The position numbers were made by a program, and so were the translations under genes. The notes under the pieces were generated by a model. The model ran no database searches. It was not told the origin of the DNA and was given only the letters and a program-made list of their open reading frames with translations. From a virus (lineage: Duplodnaviria; Heunggongvirae; Uroviricota; Caudoviricetes), in IMG/VR virus record IMGVR_UViG_2703718777_000003, positions 1 to 5,244 of that record: DNA of 5,244 nt; one strand, 5' to 3'. Positions 1 through 5,244 of the stretch are shown in pieces. Within the stretch, counting starts at the first letter, position 1. Each line of letters opens with the position of its first letter.

Positions 1-144
1 CAGTACCAGCACCTGAATCCGCGATTATCCCATATACCTACTCGCTGATTGCCCCTCCGCACAGGGGGATTCACCATGCCAGTTTCTTTTAACAAACTCC
101 CCGCAAACCAGACAACAGTCAACCGCCTGAATTGTGAGACATTT

Positions 145-170
145 AAAAAAAAGGCCCGCAAAAGCGAGCC
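145..170 (-). terminator. Intrinsic terminator immediately downstream of the tRNA-like gene
   Basis: On the minus-strand RNA: 7-bp GC-rich stem (GGCUCGC/GCGGGCC, one G-U pair) with UUUU loop (plus 153-170), followed by an 8-U run (plus 145-152 is AAAAAAAA). On the plus strand the stem has a C-A mismatch and no T-run, so it is minus-specific. Confidence 0.6.
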
Positions 171-184
171 AGGGAAAATAAGTG

Positions 185-260
185 TGGCGCGTTGTACTGG
201 ATTCGAACCAGCGACCTGGCGATTATGCGTCGCTCGCTCTCACCACTGAGCTAAAGGGCC
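185..260 (-). tRNA. tRNA-Ile2/Met-like (anticodon CAU) gene, possibly a pseudogene: cloverleaf body intact, acceptor 3' strand non-complementary
   Basis: Reverse complement of 185-260 reads GGCCCTT-TA-GCTC-AGTGGTGA-GAGC-G-AGCGA-CGCATAA-TCGCC-AGGTC-GCTGG-TTCGAAT-CCAGT-ACAACGC-G-CCA. D-arm, anticodon arm and T-arm (GGTTCGAATCC) are canonical and the 5' two-thirds resembles E. coli ileX as I remember it. But the 5' acceptor strand GGCCCTT cannot pair with the 3' strand ACAACGC (2 of 7 pairs), and position 33 is G rather than the near-universal U. Encoded CCA is present. Confidence 0.55.
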
Positions 261-269
261 GGGAGCAGA

Positions 270-298
270 ATAATAACGGTCCGTAATTAATTCCGCAA
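270..298 (-). promoter_or_regulatory. Candidate sigma70 promoter for the tRNA-like gene
   Basis: Minus strand TTGCGG (298-293), 17-nt spacer, TATTAT (275-270); the -10 lies about 10 nt upstream of the tRNA 5' end at 260. The -35 is weak (3/6). Sequence-only prediction. Confidence 0.3.
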
Positions 299-322
299 TA
301 AAAAACCCGCTCAATGGCGGGT
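296..322 (-). terminator. Intrinsic terminator downstream of the ORF6N gene
   Basis: Minus-strand hairpin ACCCGC-CATTGA-GCGGGT (plus 305-322) followed by TTTTTTATT (plus 296-304). The plus strand lacks a T-run after the stem. Confidence 0.6.
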
Positions 323-418
323 TCTGGTAAAGTTCATGCGCTTGGTTCGCCTCGCGATACAGCTTTGCGAAGCATACAGGAATTGAAGCAGTTTATGTGC
401 AAAAATGCAAGAACTTTT

Positions 419-1000
419 TTAAAGCTGCATCAACCTTTCCACCAGTTTATCTCTGCGAACAACAAACCAACCATTGGCTCTCGCCAGTTCCAGCCATGAC
501 TCAAGGGAAATAACAATATCATCATCCCGTAACTGAATTGTGGAAACAGTGACACCGCCTCTCTGATAACAGAGAACTCGCGTGTCGTAACTTTTCTGGC
601 ATGAAACTGGCGCTGACGGATCCTTTTGTCTGAAATAGCAGTCTTCCAGCTTTTCGAACACATCCCACGCCTGATCGGTTTCCAGCATTTTGGCATGACG
701 GGCTGCTCCGCGTTCTGTCCAGAGGATGAGGGAGCGGGCTTTCGGGGAAATTTGTAACCCTCTTAAAGATGGTTGCAAATTTTGTGAGTAGTTTAAAGCT
801 ACCCGCAAATTTTTCAGGGCATCGCCAGCCACTTTGAAAAAATGCTTTCCTTCAATAAAGCGCTCAGCATTTCTGGCGTAGTTATTTTGAATGTTCTTAA
901 CTCCAGCACCGTACAACTGCGCCAAAAGTTCGGTGGTAATAACAGGAATCTGGTTATGGGTGATCGGGGAGAGAGTTTCAACAGAAATTTGAGTTGTCAT
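419..1000 (-). CDS. ORF6N-domain protein (phage antirepressor-like, DNA-binding N-terminal domain; C-terminal about 90 aa unassigned)
   Basis: 193-aa ORF with ATG at 1000-998 and SD GAGGG 7 nt upstream (AGAGGGCGTCATT-ATG); stop TAA at 421-419. The N-terminal region (ITTELLAQLYGAGVKNIQNNYARNAERFIEGKHFFKV ... ISPKARSLILWTERGAARHAKMLETDQAWDVFEKL) fits the ORF6N pattern (L-YG...N..RN..RF.EG..FF ... tErGa) from memory, not from a search. Confidence 0.8.
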   Translation of the reverse strand: MTTQISVETLSPITHNQIPVITTELLAQLYGAGVKNIQNNYARNAERFIEGKHFFKVAGDALKNLRVALNYSQNLQPSLRGLQISPKARSLILWTERGAARHAKMLETDQAWDVFEKLEDCYFRQKDPSAPVSCQKSYDTRVLCYQRGGVTVSTIQLRDDDIVISLESWLELARANGWFVVRRDKLVERLMQL

Positions 1001-1011
1001 AATGACGCCCT

Positions 1012-1116
1012 CTGGTGGTTTCTAAACCATCACCACCGTCAGGTTCCTAATCATCGGGTGGTGAGACGTACAGGGTTAGGAACTACCGGGAAACCAACCG
1101 GCGAGCTTTTCAGCTC
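1012..1116 (-). repeat. Repeat-rich structured leader: nested inverted repeats with pseudoknot-type topology plus a GAAA-tetraloop hairpin
   Basis: Plus-strand arms: TCACCACC 1030-1037 with GGTGGTGA 1057-1064; GTTCCTAA 1043-1050 with TTAGGAAC 1076-1083 (interleaved S1a-S2a-S1b-S2b); GGTGGTTT 1014-1021 with AAACCATCACC 1025-1035 abutting the SD; GAGCT-TTTC-AGCTC 1103-1116 (GAAA loop on the minus RNA). Confidence 0.5.
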
Positions 1117-1160
1117 CCCCATACGCCCCACCATAATTCAGATGTGCGCGTGCATACGAC

Positions 1161-1186
1161 AATAAAAAACACGCTCGCGGCGTGTG
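1161..1186 (-). terminator. tR'-like intrinsic terminator downstream of the Q-adjacent promoter
   Basis: Minus-strand RNA has a 6-bp GC-rich stem (ACACGC/GCGTGT, plus 1169-1185) with a 5-nt loop, followed by UUUUUUAUU (plus 1161-1169). It lies about 80 nt downstream of the predicted start site. Confidence 0.55.
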
Positions 1187-1247
1187 TCTGTCGCGGTCTC
1201 TATCCGGGGTTCCTAATCCCGACGCCAGATTTTGCTGGCGCGTGAGG

Positions 1248-1277
1248 AATATAGCCCCGGATAACAGATTGAGTCAA
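1248..1277 (-). promoter_or_regulatory. pR'-like late promoter; the -35 overlaps the Q stop codon
   Basis: Minus strand TTGACT (1277-1272), the same -35 hexamer I recall for lambda pR', then a 17-nt spacer to CTATAT or 18-nt to TATATT (1254-1248). The Q TGA stop (1276-1274) lies inside the -35. A short GC hairpin (CGCCAG/CTGGCG, 1222-1241) sits in the initial transcribed region. Confidence 0.5.
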
Positions 1278-1828
1278 CAGACAGTTTTTAAATACCCGGA
1301 AGAGAATGCATCACGCATCGGCAGATAGAGCATATATTCAGCAAGATTTAGCCATACATCTACCCGACTGCAGCACGTCCGAAAACACCACTCAGGGTGT
1401 GCATCATTTAGCAATTCAGCCATTTTGCGCTTACTCATCCCCCGCCCTTCATATCTTTGCCGGAGGATACAAATCAATCCTGGGTGTTCTGCCAGCACTT
1501 CACTAATCACCCGATCAATGCATAACGCCTCTGCATCAGTACAATGCACCAGCCAGCTTTTTTGCTTGCCGTTGATCATATCCCGCAAAAAAGCCTCAAG
1601 TTCAGGTTTGTCCAGACCTGCTTTTTTCATCCTCCGGAGCGCCTCATTAATTGCCGTTTTTGTTAGCTTTTTAGAGGTCAGCAACTGGTTAAACATATTT
1701 CCCGTCTTACCGCCGCCAATATACGACCAGCGCCCCCACATACGTAGTTTTCCCTGAATCCAGACACTTTCCAGCGTGGTGAGACGAAGGTGTTCTCCGC
1801 TTTTTCCTGTATTCGTTGGGTAAATCAT
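1274..1828 (-). CDS. Putative late-gene antitermination protein Q (lambdoid Q-like, 184 aa)
   Basis: ATG at 1828-1826 preceded by a strong SD (GGAGAAAGGAGGGATATTT-ATG). The start overlaps the upstream gene's stop as ATGA. The protein has a WGRW segment and C-terminal Cys cluster (EWCFRTCCSR) resembling Q21-type antiterminators from memory. Position after the DUF1364-like gene and directly before a promoter/terminator pair is the classic Q context. Confidence 0.65.
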   Translation of the reverse strand: MIYPTNTGKSGEHLRLTTLESVWIQGKLRMWGRWSYIGGGKTGNMFNQLLTSKKLTKTAINEALRRMKKAGLDKPELEAFLRDMINGKQKSWLVHCTDAEALCIDRVISEVLAEHPGLICILRQRYEGRGMSKRKMAELLNDAHPEWCFRTCCSRVDVWLNLAEYMLYLPMRDAFSSGYLKTVC

Positions 1829-2115
1829 AAATATCCCTCCTTTCTCCAGATTTCTTGTGTGCGAAAAACACCTTCTGCATGCATCAGGCGTAATTCTTCT
1901 TTGGTGTAATCGCCGGTTTTTACCCGCCCGTCGATTAAATCGTGGCACGAGCTACAGGCAATCGCTGCCTGCATATCGTGTGGCTTTATCGCTGTTCCGC
2001 ACGTTCCCGCCAGTCGGTAATGCGCCAGCACAGACGTTTCGGGATTGTGATTGCAGTAGCCAGGGATTCTGACCTGGCACATCTGGCCCCGCGCTGCTTT
2101 ACGTAAATCCACCAT
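1825..2115 (-). CDS. DUF1364-family protein (YbcO-like putative nuclease with Cys/His metal-binding motif)
   Basis: 96-aa ORF MVDLRKAARGQMCQVRIPGYCNHNPETSVLAHYRLAG...IACSSCHDLIDGR, closely matching my recollection of E. coli DLP12 YbcO. ATG at 2115-2113 with SD GGAG 8 nt upstream; overlaps the upstream stop (TAATG) and the downstream start (ATGA). Confidence 0.85.
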   Translation of the reverse strand: MVDLRKAARGQMCQVRIPGYCNHNPETSVLAHYRLAGTCGTAIKPHDMQAAIACSSCHDLIDGRVKTGDYTKEELRLMHAEGVFRTQEIWRKEGYL

Positions 2116-2714
2116 TACGCAAACTCCAGCAGCTGCGCGGCCACATTTTCGACTTCCTCCAAAGAGGAGAATTTACGGAACAGGATCCAGTTCCACAGCA
2201 CATTCAGTACAGATTTATAAACCTGCTGAAACTCGGTTTCGTCCATGTTCGCAAATGCGATAGATTTTGCCCTGCGCCCACGACTACCGTCCGGATAAAA
2301 ATGTTCGGTGTAAAATCCGGCCTGAATGGTTACCCATTCGCGAAAAGCGTCAAAGGACTTGAGTAAGGCCGTATCCCGGGTTCTGCAAGTCGTAACGGTG
2401 TTAAGGTATTGCTCTGCGGCATCACTCAGGGCTGGCGTATGTTCCCGACCTACTGATTCGCACAGGAAATCAACGAAACCGGACACCAGTTCTCGTTCGC
2501 GAGGCGTGATCGCCCCACCGTTCGGAGTCCAGTAATCGAATCCCAGTTGCAGGAGTTTGAAAAAACGCTTGTGGAACGCGTAGTTACGCACTCGCTTAAA
2601 GTCCGCGTGTATCCACTCACCTATTTTGATTTGATGCAAAAAATCGCAACTCTCCGGCGTCGCCGGGAGAAGTAATCCGGAAGAGGTTTGTTTGACCAGT
2701 TGTATATGCGCCAT
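2115..2714 (-). CDS. nin-region protein, probably DUF1367 family (199 aa)
   Basis: Long ORF with ATG at 2714-2712 and SD GGAG 9 nt upstream (GGAGACAGCA-ATG). The ORF-track start at 2726 is a TTG codon. Stop overlaps the next gene's start. Family name comes from the remembered DUF1367/DUF1364 pairing in lambdoid prophages, not from a search. Confidence 0.75.
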   Translation of the reverse strand: MAHIQLVKQTSSGLLLPATPESCDFLHQIKIGEWIHADFKRVRNYAFHKRFFKLLQLGFDYWTPNGGAITPRERELVSGFVDFLCESVGREHTPALSDAAEQYLNTVTTCRTRDTALLKSFDAFREWVTIQAGFYTEHFYPDGSRGRRAKSIAFANMDETEFQQVYKSVLNVLWNWILFRKFSSLEEVENVAAQLLEFA

Positions 2715-2773
2715 TGCTGTCTCCAATGGCGCTGTAGGTTGCCAGTTGTTCAGGCTGGCTTACGAATTATAAC

Positions 2774-2947
2774 TCATTCCCGAATCACCTTGAAACCGAG
2801 CCTTTCAAGATATTCAATGAATGCCTCGATAGATAAAATTACATGATTATCAGGGATTAACGTTGCGTAGATAACTTCCCCATTCTCAACGCGCACAGCA
2901 TAGAGGCCATTTTCACTAAAAATTTCACGCAATTCTTCGATTTTCAT
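2774..2947 (-). CDS. Small hypothetical protein (57 aa), not in the supplied ORF track
   Basis: Hand translation of the minus strand gives MKIEELREIFSENGLYAVRVENGEVIYATLIPDNHVILSIEAFIEYLERLGFKVIRE. ATG at 2947-2945 with SD GGAAGGA 8 nt upstream; TGA at 2776-2774. It sits about 75 nt downstream of a predicted promoter and 59 nt upstream of the DUF1367-like gene. Confidence 0.55.
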   Translation of the reverse strand: MKIEELREIFSENGLYAVRVENGEVIYATLIPDNHVILSIEAFIEYLERLGFKVIRE

Positions 2948-3028
2948 CAACAGAATCCTTCCAGATAAATAGCACTCCCCTGCTCGGGGTCCATCCCTCT
3001 TCTCCCTGCGCGCTACTTAAGTGCATCG

Positions 3029-3056
3029 ATTCTAGTCAGGCATACCCGCTTATCAA
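3029..3056 (-). promoter_or_regulatory. Candidate sigma70 promoter for the small ORF/DUF1367/DUF1364/Q operon
   Basis: Minus strand TTGATA (3056-3051), 16-nt spacer, TAGAAT (3034-3029), located just downstream of the bidirectional terminator. Sequence-only prediction. Confidence 0.4.
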
Positions 3057-3109
3057 CAAACGAAGGTCGGTTTAGTGGAGGAATCGGCTAAAACTTGATC
3101 TGTTAAAGT

Positions 3110-3136
3110 AAAAAACCCGCCGAAGCGGGTTTTTTG
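3110..3136. terminator. Bidirectional intrinsic terminator
   Basis: AAAAAACCCGC-CGAA-GCGGGTTTTTT: a perfect 6-bp stem with 4-nt loop, flanked by A6 on one side and T6 on the other, so a hairpin plus U-run is formed on either strand. Sits 5 nt after the nuclease gene stop. Confidence 0.7.
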
Positions 3137-3140
3137 TATA

Positions 3141-3626
3141 TTACATACTCTCAATGTCATTTTTTAGTGAGTGCTTGTGTAACTCCATGGAGTAATCAAC
3201 ATCACGAAGAGTTTTTTCAATCTGCTTGTTCCCAATAAAAGGTTTATCTTCAGGGTTACCCCAACAGCAATTCCCCTTGGGCCATCCATGTACTTTCCGT
3301 ACTCTTCCGTTAACAACGTGAAGTAATCCCCAGCCGGGTGGTAAATCCTCAATTGAAATAATTCCCGGCTCACTAATAAAGAATCGCCAGTCGCCCATTC
3401 CAAGAGACGGATTTTTACGAAAACGCTTTTTTCTATCTGCCAACAAGTCAGCACGAGAACATTTCGCCTCTATCAGGCATGATGCTGAATTTCTGAATCC
3501 CATAGCATCTGGCTGTTCTCCGGTACTGGTTACAGCTATAAAGCGGTCATGAAAACAAACCTTGAACCCGTTGCGCTTAAGGAACTTGTACGCAATCTGA
3601 CAGAGTTCGCGGTGTGTTAACGCCAT
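3141..3626 (-). CDS. PD-(D/E)xK nuclease-fold protein, Hjc-like (archaeal-type Holliday-junction-resolvase-like core) with a C-terminal extension of about 80 aa
   Basis: 161 aa from ATG 3626-3624 with SD AAGGAGAG (the ORF-track start at 3656 is TTG). Motif order HRELCQIAYKFLKRNGF ... QPDAMGF ... CLIEAKCS matches the E...PD...(E)xK catalytic core. Start lies 1 nt after the Ead/Ea22-like stop (TGA-T-ATG). Confidence 0.8.
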   Translation of the reverse strand: MALTHRELCQIAYKFLKRNGFKVCFHDRFIAVTSTGEQPDAMGFRNSASCLIEAKCSRADLLADRKKRFRKNPSLGMGDWRFFISEPGIISIEDLPPGWGLLHVVNGRVRKVHGWPKGNCCWGNPEDKPFIGNKQIEKTLRDVDYSMELHKHSLKNDIESM

Positions 3627-3627
3627 A

Positions 3628-4575
3628 TCACTCTCCTTTGATGCGAATGCCAGCAAGCCAGTTTCTTATGCCGATATATTCAGCGTTCCTGAAACCGCTT
3701 TTTACATATATAAATGGCAAGCGAAGATTGTGACCATTGACTGCCAGGTAGTCTTTACAACCCTGTTCGGTGAAACAGCAGGTAACGAATTCATCAATAT
3801 CTTTCACAGCAACGCGCCGCCATTTTTCTGGTGGCTCTCGAAAGTTTTCATGAAGTAGCTCGAGACGACGACTATGGCGTTTATTGGCTTCATTGCCATC
3901 TTCGTCAACCCAGACAATCCGGTCATGGTCATAATCAGCATCAACAACGATTTCGCGCTTTTGATACACACAAAACATGGGATCTGACGTTATTCGATTG
4001 TCCTGTGTTCGAATATTTTCACCGATGATGCCAAACGAATCTGGTGCAGATTTTGTCTGCATCTCTTCGATACGTTCAGCCATCGCAGCACACTCTTCAA
4101 AGTTGCTTAATGCTTTTCGCTCCCATTCGGCGCATTGTTTTTCCAGTTCTGCTATGCGCTTACTTCCATCCGCGATTACTCCCTCGTAATATTCACGCTG
4201 CTCGTTGAGTTTTGATTTTGCTGCTTCAAGCTCAACGCGCAGCTTCCCTACCGTAAGCGCAATATCCTCGTTCTCCTGGTCGCGGCGTTTGATGTATTGC
4301 TGGTTTCTTTCCCGTTCATCCAGAAGCGCCAGCGCAACATTTGGATTAAAGGCAGCAATAAATTCAGCGTTTGCATAAGCCTGAACATCTGTTTCAACCA
4401 GGCAGTTAACATGACATTCTGCAATTACGCCACCGGGTTCTCCTTTCCATTTTTGACAAACAAAAACTCCTGTTATATTCCCATGCTGATTGCCCGATGT
4501 ATGCCCTACGATGTAGCATCCTTTAGTTGCTTTCTCTGCTGCTTCACGCAGCGCCTGATAGTCAATCTCGCTCAT
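3628..4575 (-). CDS. Ead/Ea22-like family protein (conserved N-terminal domain, central coiled-coil, divergent C-terminal domain)
   Basis: 315-aa ORF. N-terminus MSEIDYQALREAAEKATKG... resembles Ead/Ea22-like prophage proteins from memory; the centre is heptad-like and charged (ELEAAKSKLNEQREYYEGVIADGSKRIAELEKQCAEWERKAL). ATG at 4575-4573 overlaps the upstream TGA as ATGA. Confidence 0.8.
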   Translation of the reverse strand: MSEIDYQALREAAEKATKGCYIVGHTSGNQHGNITGVFVCQKWKGEPGGVIAECHVNCLVETDVQAYANAEFIAAFNPNVALALLDERERNQQYIKRRDQENEDIALTVGKLRVELEAAKSKLNEQREYYEGVIADGSKRIAELEKQCAEWERKALSNFEECAAMAERIEEMQTKSAPDSFGIIGENIRTQDNRITSDPMFCVYQKREIVVDADYDHDRIVWVDEDGNEANKRHSRRLELLHENFREPPEKWRRVAVKDIDEFVTCCFTEQGCKDYLAVNGHNLRLPFIYVKSGFRNAEYIGIRNWLAGIRIKGE

Positions 4576-4748
4576 TCATCGCCCCACTCATCACAATATG
4601 CTTCGACCGCAGTTTTCCCTGCTTCATAATCATCACGCCATGCTTCAGCATCAGCGGCACTTCCACCGCGTAACTCTGCATAATCCATTAACAGTTCATG
4701 CCATTCTTCAAAACTGGCGTTATATTTAGTTGAACCAAAATCAGCCAT
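4572..4748 (-). CDS. Small hyperacidic hypothetical protein (58 aa)
   Basis: MADFGSTKYNASFEEWHELLMDYAELRGGSAADAEAWRDDYEAGKTAVEAYCDEWGDE, with ATG at 4748-4746 and a strong SD (GAGGAAGGA, 4 nt spacing). About 16 Asp/Glu against 4 Lys/Arg, and W/Y-rich. Overlaps the upstream gene's end by 8 nt and the downstream start by 4 nt. Confidence 0.7.
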   Translation of the reverse strand: MADFGSTKYNASFEEWHELLMDYAELRGGSAADAEAWRDDYEAGKTAVEAYCDEWGDE

Positions 4749-4923
4749 TTTGTCCTTCCTCTTCATCTTTTATTTCGTGGTATGAGTAATTGCAGTGGTT
4801 AAAGAAAATTTCTTTTGCTTCGTCATGAATTTCATCAGGTGTTGCGTCATCATCTACTTCGAATACATCCTCAAAATCTCCACCAGCTATTCCCGTTTCA
4901 ATAATTATTTTGAATTTTCGCAT
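4741..4923 (-). CDS. Small hyperacidic hypothetical protein (60 aa)
   Basis: MRKFKIIIETGIAGGDFEDVFEVDDDATPDEIHDEAKEIFFNHCNYSYHEIKDEEEGQNG, with ATG at 4923-4921. 18 Asp/Glu against 5 Lys/Arg. Its own SD is weak, but a short upstream ORF with a strong SD overlaps its start. Confidence 0.65.
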   Translation of the reverse strand: MRKFKIIIETGIAGGDFEDVFEVDDDATPDEIHDEAKEIFFNHCNYSYHEIKDEEEGQNG

Positions 4924-5016
4924 TTCACTACCGCCATTTCGAACGGCCTCCTGATGTTCTGAGGGTGCAGAAATCCCTCCGGTTAAGGATTAAATTTTTA
5001 ACAGTGCTAAATTTAA

Positions 5017-5244
5017 TTATTCAGTTCTTGATTTTGCCGCCCTGCGTATCCGCGCTTTCGCGTTACGCTCAATCTGAATTAGCTTTTCTATATTTTTCCG
5101 CCTTTCCTGTTCCTCCTGTCGCAATAGCCTTACGTCATCTGCCAGTCTGGTTTCTCTTTTCGCCACAGAGAGCATCCAGTCAAACGGCTCCACAACTGCA
5201 CCGCAGATTTTACAACGGACCTGACGCTCTTTTTCGTCAACCCG
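5017..5244 (-). CDS. Hypothetical protein, 5'-truncated by the window edge (CxxC motif, basic coiled-coil-like C-terminus)
   Basis: Open minus-strand frame from the window edge to TAA at 5019-5017: ...RVDEKERQVRCKICGAVVEPFDWMLSVAKRETRLADDVRLLRQEEQERRKNIEKLIQIERNAKARIRRAAKSRTE. No in-window start, so it is absent from the ORF track. Confidence 0.5.
   Translation of the reverse strand, partial: RVDEKERQVRCKICGAVVEPFDWMLSVAKRETRLADDVRLLRQEEQERRKNIEKLIQIERNAKARIRRAAKSRTE

Follow-up and report, generated by a model that had tools for sequence, protein, structure and literature searches.

We analysed a stretch of viral DNA of 5,244 nucleotides (nt), positions 1 to 5,244 of the IMG/VR record IMGVR_UViG_2703718777_000003 (Caudoviricetes), here called the window, in which all genes lie on the minus strand. 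Between a Q-like gene and the gene for an antirepressor-type protein with an ORF6N domain lies a segment, 1277–1001, that we interpret, with a probability of about 0.8, as the control region of a self-contained antirepressor cassette of the P1/P7 immI type. The cassette would be the counterpart of the isrK locus of Gifsy-1, inserted between the Q-like gene and the probable late unit of that Q; all of its features are likewise on the minus strand, and coordinates are given below in the direction of transcription. Three Rfam matches above their curated thresholds follow one another in the expected order (isrK, c4-a1b1 and C4), and by family score, structure and target-site logic the element is already known and not a new kind. 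The cassette is mobile and is placed ahead of a likely late promoter. An earlier note on this DNA had taken the segment for a Q-dependent late promoter and terminator, in the lambda pR'–6S RNA–tR' layout, feeding a structured leader that might act as an RNA switch or protein-binding platform on top of Q antitermination. The idea of an RNA switch holds, with the ORF6N gene as its object; the protein platform and the Q layer give way to an antisense-RNA system.

Promoter, small RNAs and leader of the cassette

The cassette promoter (1277–1248), of the type of the isrK promoter, consists of the −35 hexamer TTGACT (1277–1272), an 18-nt spacer and the −10 hexamer TATATT (1253–1248), with a predicted start near 1241. 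It matches the consensus at 10 of 12 positions and is the sole promoter-like site that a promoter scan returned in bases 1–2200. The stop codon TGA (1276–1274) of the Q-like open reading frame (ORF) lies inside the −35 hexamer, just as the earlier note had seen. Across at least six upstream contexts, TTGAC and ATCCGGGGCTATATT are kept. The predicted transcript begins with an IsrK-type small RNA (1241–1164), identified by two Rfam families, a terminator scan and its fold. The isrK family (RF01394) matches at 1241–1164 with 69.4 bits against a threshold of 50, and the scans found a promoter and an intrinsic terminator of its own; the c4-a1b1 family (RF03163), described from gamma-proteobacteria and phages generally, matches at 1254–1201 with 47.8 bits, narrowly above its threshold of 46.7. 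Hairpin 1 of this RNA (1241–1222) carries an invariant CAAAAU loop, and the loop of hairpin 2 (1221–1205) holds a segment that we call b1 (UUAGGAAC, 1216–1209). A terminator hairpin (1185–1169) followed by a U-run places the predicted RNA end about 77 nt past the start, close to the 80 nt expected beforehand. The CAAAAT at +8 to +13 resembles a −10 element, with the key A as its second base and T as its sixth, and is at the same time the loop of hairpin 1 and part of the c4-a1b1 consensus.

Downstream of the terminator lies a leader of 163 nt (1163–1001) that is dense in interleaved complementary segments, in line with the roughly 160-nt leader of interleaved inverted repeats described earlier. 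Four exact inverted repeats of at least 8 nt occur in 1277–1001 against 0.45 expected, a number reached by one in 1,000 dinucleotide shuffles. Within the leader lies a C4-type antisense RNA (1138–1054), a full-length match to the Rfam C4 model (RF01695) with 67 bits against a threshold of 45. It is built from a 17-bp closing stem (1133–1117 with 1075–1059), hairpin 1 (1116–1103) and hairpin 2 (1102–1085), whose loop holds the segment a' (UGGUUUC, 1096–1090), and from a single-stranded joint that contains the segment b' (GUUCCUAA, 1083–1076). Taken alone, the C4 part folds into the family shape (−42.9 kcal/mol, z = −4.5). The target part of the antirepressor leader follows (1050–1001), with b2 (UUAGGAAC, 1050–1043), a2 (GAAACCA, 1022–1016) and the Shine-Dalgarno sequence AGAGGG (1013–1008). 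The two parts are joined by exact complements: a' with a2, b' with b2, and UCACCACC (1064–1057) with GGUGGUGA (1037–1030), the last being an alternative partner of the 3' arm of C4. A third copy of UUAGGAAC, unlisted in the earlier note, is b1 itself, within the short terminated RNA. The full 257-nt leader folds with z = −4.0, and in its structure of minimum energy b' takes b1 as its partner in cis and the 3' arm of C4 takes GGUGGUGA.

The regulated cargo of the cassette is the ORF6N-domain antirepressor-type gene (1000–419, 193 amino acids; Pfam ORF6N, E = 4e-19). Its protein is 54% identical to AnrP (STM2616) of Gifsy-1, and the first 27 residues are identical. Overlapping the C4 part is a short ORF of 27 codons (1134–1051), with its ATG at 1134, a second ATG at 1122 and the stop TGA at 1053–1051, 50 nt upstream of the antirepressor ATG at 1000. 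Its start corresponds to the position of Gifsy-1 orf45, and both in-frame ATGs are conserved. The ORF at this position is as short as 14 codons in some homologues and longer than 45 in others, its frame shifts between them, and it reaches the antirepressor ATG only in Gifsy-1 and one other class. A conserved coding frame like orf45 or icd was rejected on these grounds, as both length and frame vary across homologues, and from its sequence the short ORF is probably not a conserved coding sequence. Because the ORF is short and its frame is not conserved, translational coupling of the orf45 kind is unlikely here, and control is probably exerted directly at the ribosome binding site of the antirepressor gene.

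What the window itself shows is membership of known sequence families, the structures, and a complementarity shared three ways by b1, b' and b2; work on P1/P7 together with mutants of Gifsy-1 suggests by analogy how these may act. We propose that the sigma-70 promoter of the cassette fires and that most transcripts would end at the intrinsic terminator, giving the 77-nt IsrK-type RNA, while some would pass it and extend through the leader into the gene for the ORF6N antirepressor. Within the read-through RNA, the C4-type RNA would probably be released by processing. Its a' would pair with a2, 3 nt from the Shine-Dalgarno sequence, and its b' with b2, 30 nt farther upstream in the same leader, and both pairings together would block ribosome entry and keep the antirepressor silent. 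IsrK could relieve this block, in cis or in trans, as its b1 is an exact copy of b2 and may compete for b'. In the unprocessed transcript, GGUGGUGA could unzip the closing stem of C4. The translational repression, the processing and the decoy role of IsrK in this scheme are modelled on the P1/P7 and Gifsy-1 systems; Hfq binding and activation in trans are further features of the IsrK family.

A 9-nt inverted repeat formed by TATCCGGGG (1263–1255) and CCCCGGATA (1209–1201) flanks the −10 hexamer, the start and hairpins 1 and 2 of IsrK. Covariation of its arms was examined among homologues and is uninformative, both arms being near-invariant. The upstream arm TATCCGGGG lies in the untranscribed spacer and would be relevant only to transcripts entering from the Q gene, or as a site in the DNA.

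Covarying recognition segments in homologous leaders

We collected 80 viral loci with relatives of the antirepressor, together with Gifsy-1, and built an alignment of 30 leaders, of which 27 are distinct; as a control for each helix, its pairs were slid by 1–3 columns. Every proposed helix is 100% paired in the 27 distinct sequences, as opposed to 34–44% in the slid controls. Changes on both sides are most frequent where the recognition segments meet: they affect 5 of the 8 base pairs between the IsrK hairpin 2 loop (b1) and the C4 joint (b'), and 5 of 8 between b' and the leader site b2. Within C4 they are found in all 5 pairs of hairpin 1, in 5 of the 17 pairs of the closing stem and in none of the 5 pairs of hairpin 2, and a single pair of 8 shows them between the C4 3' arm and GGUGGUGA. 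The covariance analysis that the earlier note had proposed thus finds repeat arms that covary perfectly across the 27 distinct homologues, which argues that the arms are functional. The alternative pairings it had listed fare unevenly. The one between UCACCACC and GGUGGUGA is exact, as are others, but GGUGGU with ACCACC next to the Shine-Dalgarno sequence, although present in the window, is not conserved beyond chance; among homologues it is 83% paired with zero compensatory changes, no better than the shuffle control.

The segments b1, b' and b2 co-vary as five classes (UUAGGAAC, UUGGAAC, UUGGCGU, UUAGCAC and UUGAGAC). One b class equals another minus one base, and the deletion is shared by all three copies. 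The loop segment a' and its counterpart a2, the latter 3 nt from the antirepressor Shine-Dalgarno sequence here and overlapping it in one class, likewise fall into five matched classes. A column-based count for a' and a2 gave 69% paired, since the loop lengths differ, and a search for the longest complement in each sequence was used instead; it finds 6–8 nt of complementarity between cognate segments versus 3–5 nt between non-cognate ones. The summed duplex energy is best for the cognate partner in 10 of the 10 rows compared. The a and b classes are seen in ten combinations, from which it follows that a and b are reshuffled independently.

A further idea, which we regard as speculative and rather unlikely, is that the a and b segments form a combinatorial address code (at least five by five classes, with the ten combinations seen) by which co-resident lambdoid prophages could insulate or cross-trigger their antirepressors. 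C4-type RNAs might then be immunity factors acting in trans, and IsrK-type RNAs decoys in trans that induce neighbours of the same b class. Insertion between Q and the late promoter in three Q families would, on the same idea, mark a selected position that is read by early lytic transcription and insulated from the late genes.

Position of the cassette relative to Q genes and late units

The Q-like gene upstream (1831–1274; Pfam DUF1133, E = 1e-106, with weak Phage_antitermQ similarity, PF06530, E = 3e-6) is a neighbour of the cassette and lies outside the cassette proper. The cassette promoter is very probably not the Q-dependent late promoter. In about 200 Shiga toxin (Stx) phage genomes homology sets in precisely at 1277, the first base of TTGACT, and the cassette lies in the nin region. 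One of these contexts was read in detail: in VT2-Sakai ninE is the gene immediately before the cassette, and the phage's Q gene, with an annotated late promoter, qut site and terminator of its own, comes 2.5 kb farther downstream. The cassette promoter and leader are found after Q genes of the DUF1133 type, the Q21/QuuD type and the Q82 type (Gifsy-1), after a 60-amino-acid ORF, or with no gene upstream on the same strand. These Q families are not related to one another, and the DNA site recognised is different in each (10.1101/651190). Published Q21 binding-site sequences were also sought for a comparison of spacers, and the text of 10.1101/651190, as far as it was available to us, gives no sequences.

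What does travel with each Q family is a second unit. In three Q families, loci without the cassette have a family-specific unit of promoter, leader and terminator directly after Q, and in loci with the cassette this unit comes immediately behind the antirepressor gene. For the DUF1133 type, the Q stop in the 27 of 80 loci that have no cassette is followed at once by TTGATT, 17 nt, TTCAAT, a conserved leader and a terminator. This unit of about 115 bp occurs in the window directly after the antirepressor gene, at about 410–300. For the Q82 type, isrJ starts 26–35 nt past the Q stop in loci that have no cassette (L199–L243), and about 879 nt away, right after anrP, in the cassette-bearing locus of Gifsy-1 (L082, 33406–33480). 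For the Q21 type, loci that have no cassette show TTTACG, TATCAT, AAGAGTGGTT and a terminator after Q, and in 11 of the 11 cassette-bearing loci checked TTTACG, TATCCT, AAGAGTGGTT and a terminator come right after the antirepressor gene. Since the position of the unit tracks the presence or absence of the cassette in all three Q families, we infer that the cassette was inserted between Q and the probable late unit of that Q. IsrJ would thus correspond to lambda 6S RNA: it has the look of a short, terminated leader RNA made from the Q82-type late promoter.

The candidate late unit of the DUF1133-type Q in the window (410–300) comprises TTGCAT (410–405), a 17-nt spacer, TTCAAT (387–382), a −10-like TATGCT (376–371), a leader of about 75 nt and a terminator whose stem pairs 321–317 with 310–306, followed by a U-run (305–300). 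The stretch 375–298 folds with z = −2.2 and contains the terminator hairpin. A consensus scan called neither the promoter nor the terminator of this unit, and TTCAAT is without the usual A at position 2; the putative promoter is proposed from position and conservation, and the unit is assigned by synteny and folding. An Rfam scan of a unit of this kind (in locus L139) gave no family match.

Related systems, alternatives and distribution

In Gifsy-1 the locus reads antQ–isrK–orf45 (STnc1160)–anrP–isrJ (Hershko-Shalev et al. 2016, PMC4825925). Our scan of it returned the same three Rfam matches in the same order between the Q gene and anrP. The order of parts agrees with that in the window: a Q gene with its stop in the −35 hexamer, IsrK and its terminator, a C4-like RNA, an ORF6N antirepressor gene and a second short promoter–terminator unit. 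Promoter and IsrK together are 84% identical over 113 nt. The two loci differ in the family of Q (Q82 type in Gifsy-1, DUF1133 here), in the recognition segments (b is UUGGCGU there and UUAGGAAC here; a' is CGGUGAU there and UGGUUUC here) and in the unit after the antirepressor gene (isrJ there, an unnamed leader here). In Gifsy-1, moreover, the orf45 stop overlaps the antirepressor start (AUGA), whereas the ORF here is cut to 27 codons and ends short of the antirepressor gene. The Gifsy-1 authors also found the nucleotide sequence of orf45 to be conserved while its amino-acid sequence is variable, and detected a processed species of 80 nt, STnc1160 (PMC4825925). In their experiments G28A, G31A, C162U and C159U raised basal anrP translation, and the IsrK mutants no longer activated in trans (PMC4825925). 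G28 and G31 fall in b1, and their respective pairing partners C162 and C159 in b', so that these mutants fit a decoy role of IsrK.

The immI operon of P1 and P7, reportedly described by Citron and Schuster in 1990, offers the second comparison. It has the order a1 b1–c4–a2 b2–icd–ant, and its c4 RNA blocks antirepressor synthesis by pairing near a ribosome binding site (PMC12197685). As there, the antisense RNA in the window lies on the same transcript as its target, and two short recognition segments are matched to two sites ahead of the antirepressor gene, with a further copy upstream. In P1 and P7 the segments set specificity, as their heteroimmunity shows; here they come in five a and five b classes. 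The differences concern the target and the upstream part. Control in P1/P7 is coupled through icd, whereas there is no icd here and the site targeted is the ribosome binding site of the antirepressor gene itself; the upstream a1/b1 part here has its own intrinsic terminator and would form a separate small RNA; and P1 and P7 are plasmid prophages, as opposed to a lambdoid prophage with an antirepressor of the ORF6N type. Mature P1 c4 is released by processing involving RNase P, and the processing proposed here is modelled on it. The CI RNA of P4, with its seqA and seqC sites, is also a processed, structured immunity RNA flanked by complementary sites (PMC4825925). It acts by premature transcription termination of replication genes, and we compare it with the cassette by layout alone. 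With lambda pR'–6S RNA–tR' and its counterparts in phages 21 and 82, the cassette shares a promoter directly after Q and then a short terminated RNA. Unlike these, its 1277–1164 unit is tied to no Q family and also occurs where no Q is adjacent, and the unit here that behaves as if linked to Q is the one at 410–300.

This difference bears directly on the reading given in the earlier note, in which 1277–1248 is the Q-dependent late promoter, the 77-nt RNA corresponds to lambda 6S RNA, and Q-modified polymerase enters the structured leader as a second layer of control. In its favour, the promoter stands immediately past a Q-like gene whose stop lies within the −35 hexamer, the same junction recurs after the Q82-type Q of Gifsy-1 and near the stop of Q21-type genes, and the −10-like CAAAAT could be a pause element of the sigma-dependent kind. 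The window does have a promoter right behind Q and a terminator close by, but specificity to, and inheritance with, one Q family are not found. Genes of three unrelated Q families, each with a site of its own (10.1101/651190), are followed by the identical promoter, leader and terminator, which also occur in the nin region of about 200 Stx phage genomes; in VT2-Sakai they come after ninE, 2.5 kb from the Q gene and the annotated late promoter of that phage. Each Q family moreover has the distinct unit of its own described above, and the spacer of the DUF1133 unit is dissimilar to that of the cassette promoter. The CAAAAT loop is conserved in the c4-a1b1 consensus too, a family known from gamma-proteobacteria and phages at large, and the Gifsy-1 promoter drives downstream transcription on a plasmid where Q is not induced (PMC4825925). 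We therefore consider a Q-dependent late promoter at this position very improbable. What lies downstream is an antirepressor gene, followed by the second promoter–terminator unit.

The model put forward for Gifsy-1 could also apply unchanged, and although we think it improbable it is the most serious competitor. In it, the long transcript is held inactive in cis by pairing between the central part of IsrK and the C4 region, and IsrK supplied in trans shifts the leader to an active structure in which the short upstream ORF is translated and coupled to the antirepressor. The minimum-energy fold of the 257-nt leader, with b1 paired to b' in cis and the C4 3' arm to GGUGGUGA, resembles the published inactive structure A (PMC4825925), and the two in-frame orf45 ATGs at 1134 and 1122 are conserved. 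The coupling AUGA overlap is absent here, however, as the 27-codon ORF stops 50 nt before the antirepressor ATG; its frame shifts among homologues; and the model gives no role to the covariation of a' and a2 beside the Shine-Dalgarno sequence. Still less likely, in our view, is control of the P4 CI type, in which the processed C4-like RNA would pair with b1 and b2 on nascent transcripts and cause premature termination in place of a translational block. It would suit the complementary sites up- and downstream of the antisense RNA, which are arranged as in P4, and the location of b1, some 25 nt ahead of the terminator hairpin. Binding of C4 in P1 reportedly brings about Rho-dependent termination within icd, which likewise counts for such control. 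The analogy with P4 was raised by the Gifsy-1 authors themselves (PMC4825925). Against it, a2 covaries with a' and lies beside or overlapping the Shine-Dalgarno sequence in every class, which points to ribosome occlusion, and the effect of IsrK in Gifsy-1 was 139-fold on a translational fusion versus 8-fold on a transcriptional one (PMC4825925). Control by a C4-type antisense RNA at the antirepressor ribosome binding site, with IsrK as a decoy, has observations of its own to contend with. The IsrK hairpin 1 loop is invariant, is not complementary to the variable a' and does not track it, and so does not match the a1 segment expected from P1. The Shine-Dalgarno sequence is weakly structured in the minimum-energy fold of the full leader, and the E. 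coli version is known here from sequence alone. The Gifsy-1 authors explain activation by alternative cis structures and translation of orf45, not by a free antisense RNA, and constitutive STnc1160 increased, rather than decreased, the growth arrest caused by IsrK (PMC4825925). All of these weigh against our interpretation.

Of 5,426 complete E. coli genomes, 1,719 contain the cassette, in as many as six copies each. It also occurs in 248 phage records, the majority from Stx phages, and most of the Stx phage genomes searched carry it. RefSeq annotation has nothing at its position. In that the cassette would decide antirepressor production, it bears on prophage induction in pathogenic E. coli. 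Recognising it prevents the IsrK promoter and terminator from being mistaken for a late promoter, directs attention to what is probably the real late unit of the DUF1133-type Q proteins, for which no target site has been characterised, and brings the work on P1 c4 and that on Salmonella IsrK together as accounts of a single system. The covarying address segments are ready-made designs for mutants and compensatory mutants. Specialists may find points of interest in the combinatorial a and b classes, in the fact that the coupled upstream ORF has been lost, in insertions that recur between Q and its late unit, and in the implied identity of IsrJ as a Q82-type late leader; none of these overturns current understanding.

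Several other observations were made along the way. A tRNA-like remnant lies at 254–195 (minus strand; Rfam tRNA, 37 bits), with recognisable D, anticodon (CAU) and T arms and an unpaired acceptor stem; it sits where Gifsy-1 and Stx phages have intact tRNA genes, and an ARAGORN scan of the window called no tRNA. A match to the prophage small RNA family STnc100 (108–1, minus strand; 52 bits, with the threshold at 47) runs into the end of the window; ahead of it lie a terminator (170–153) and a TTGACT (122–117). According to a preprint of 2026, STnc100 is related to the PasD small RNAs that adjoin lambda-type Q genes; the literature on STnc100 was examined for relevance to the cassette and has no bearing on it. 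At 3105–3135, a GC-rich hairpin with an A-run on one side and a T-run on the other (aaaaaacccgccgaagcgggtttttt) resembles a bidirectional terminator placed between genes that converge or adjoin, and Rfam gave weak sub-threshold matches only for it. In phiSTEC1589-Stx1c (L001, 4024–4206 and 5048–5138), tandem antirepressor-type genes each have their own upstream C4-like RNA, the second of which is an Rfam sRNA-Xcc1 match upstream of the gene for a Rha protein. Finally, the record PP818812.1 of the Actinobacillus phage vB_Apl-pPE4 (hit H51) contains a stretch 95% identical to the E. coli DUF1133 gene and cassette promoter, which is unexpected for the stated host and may be E. coli-derived sequence.

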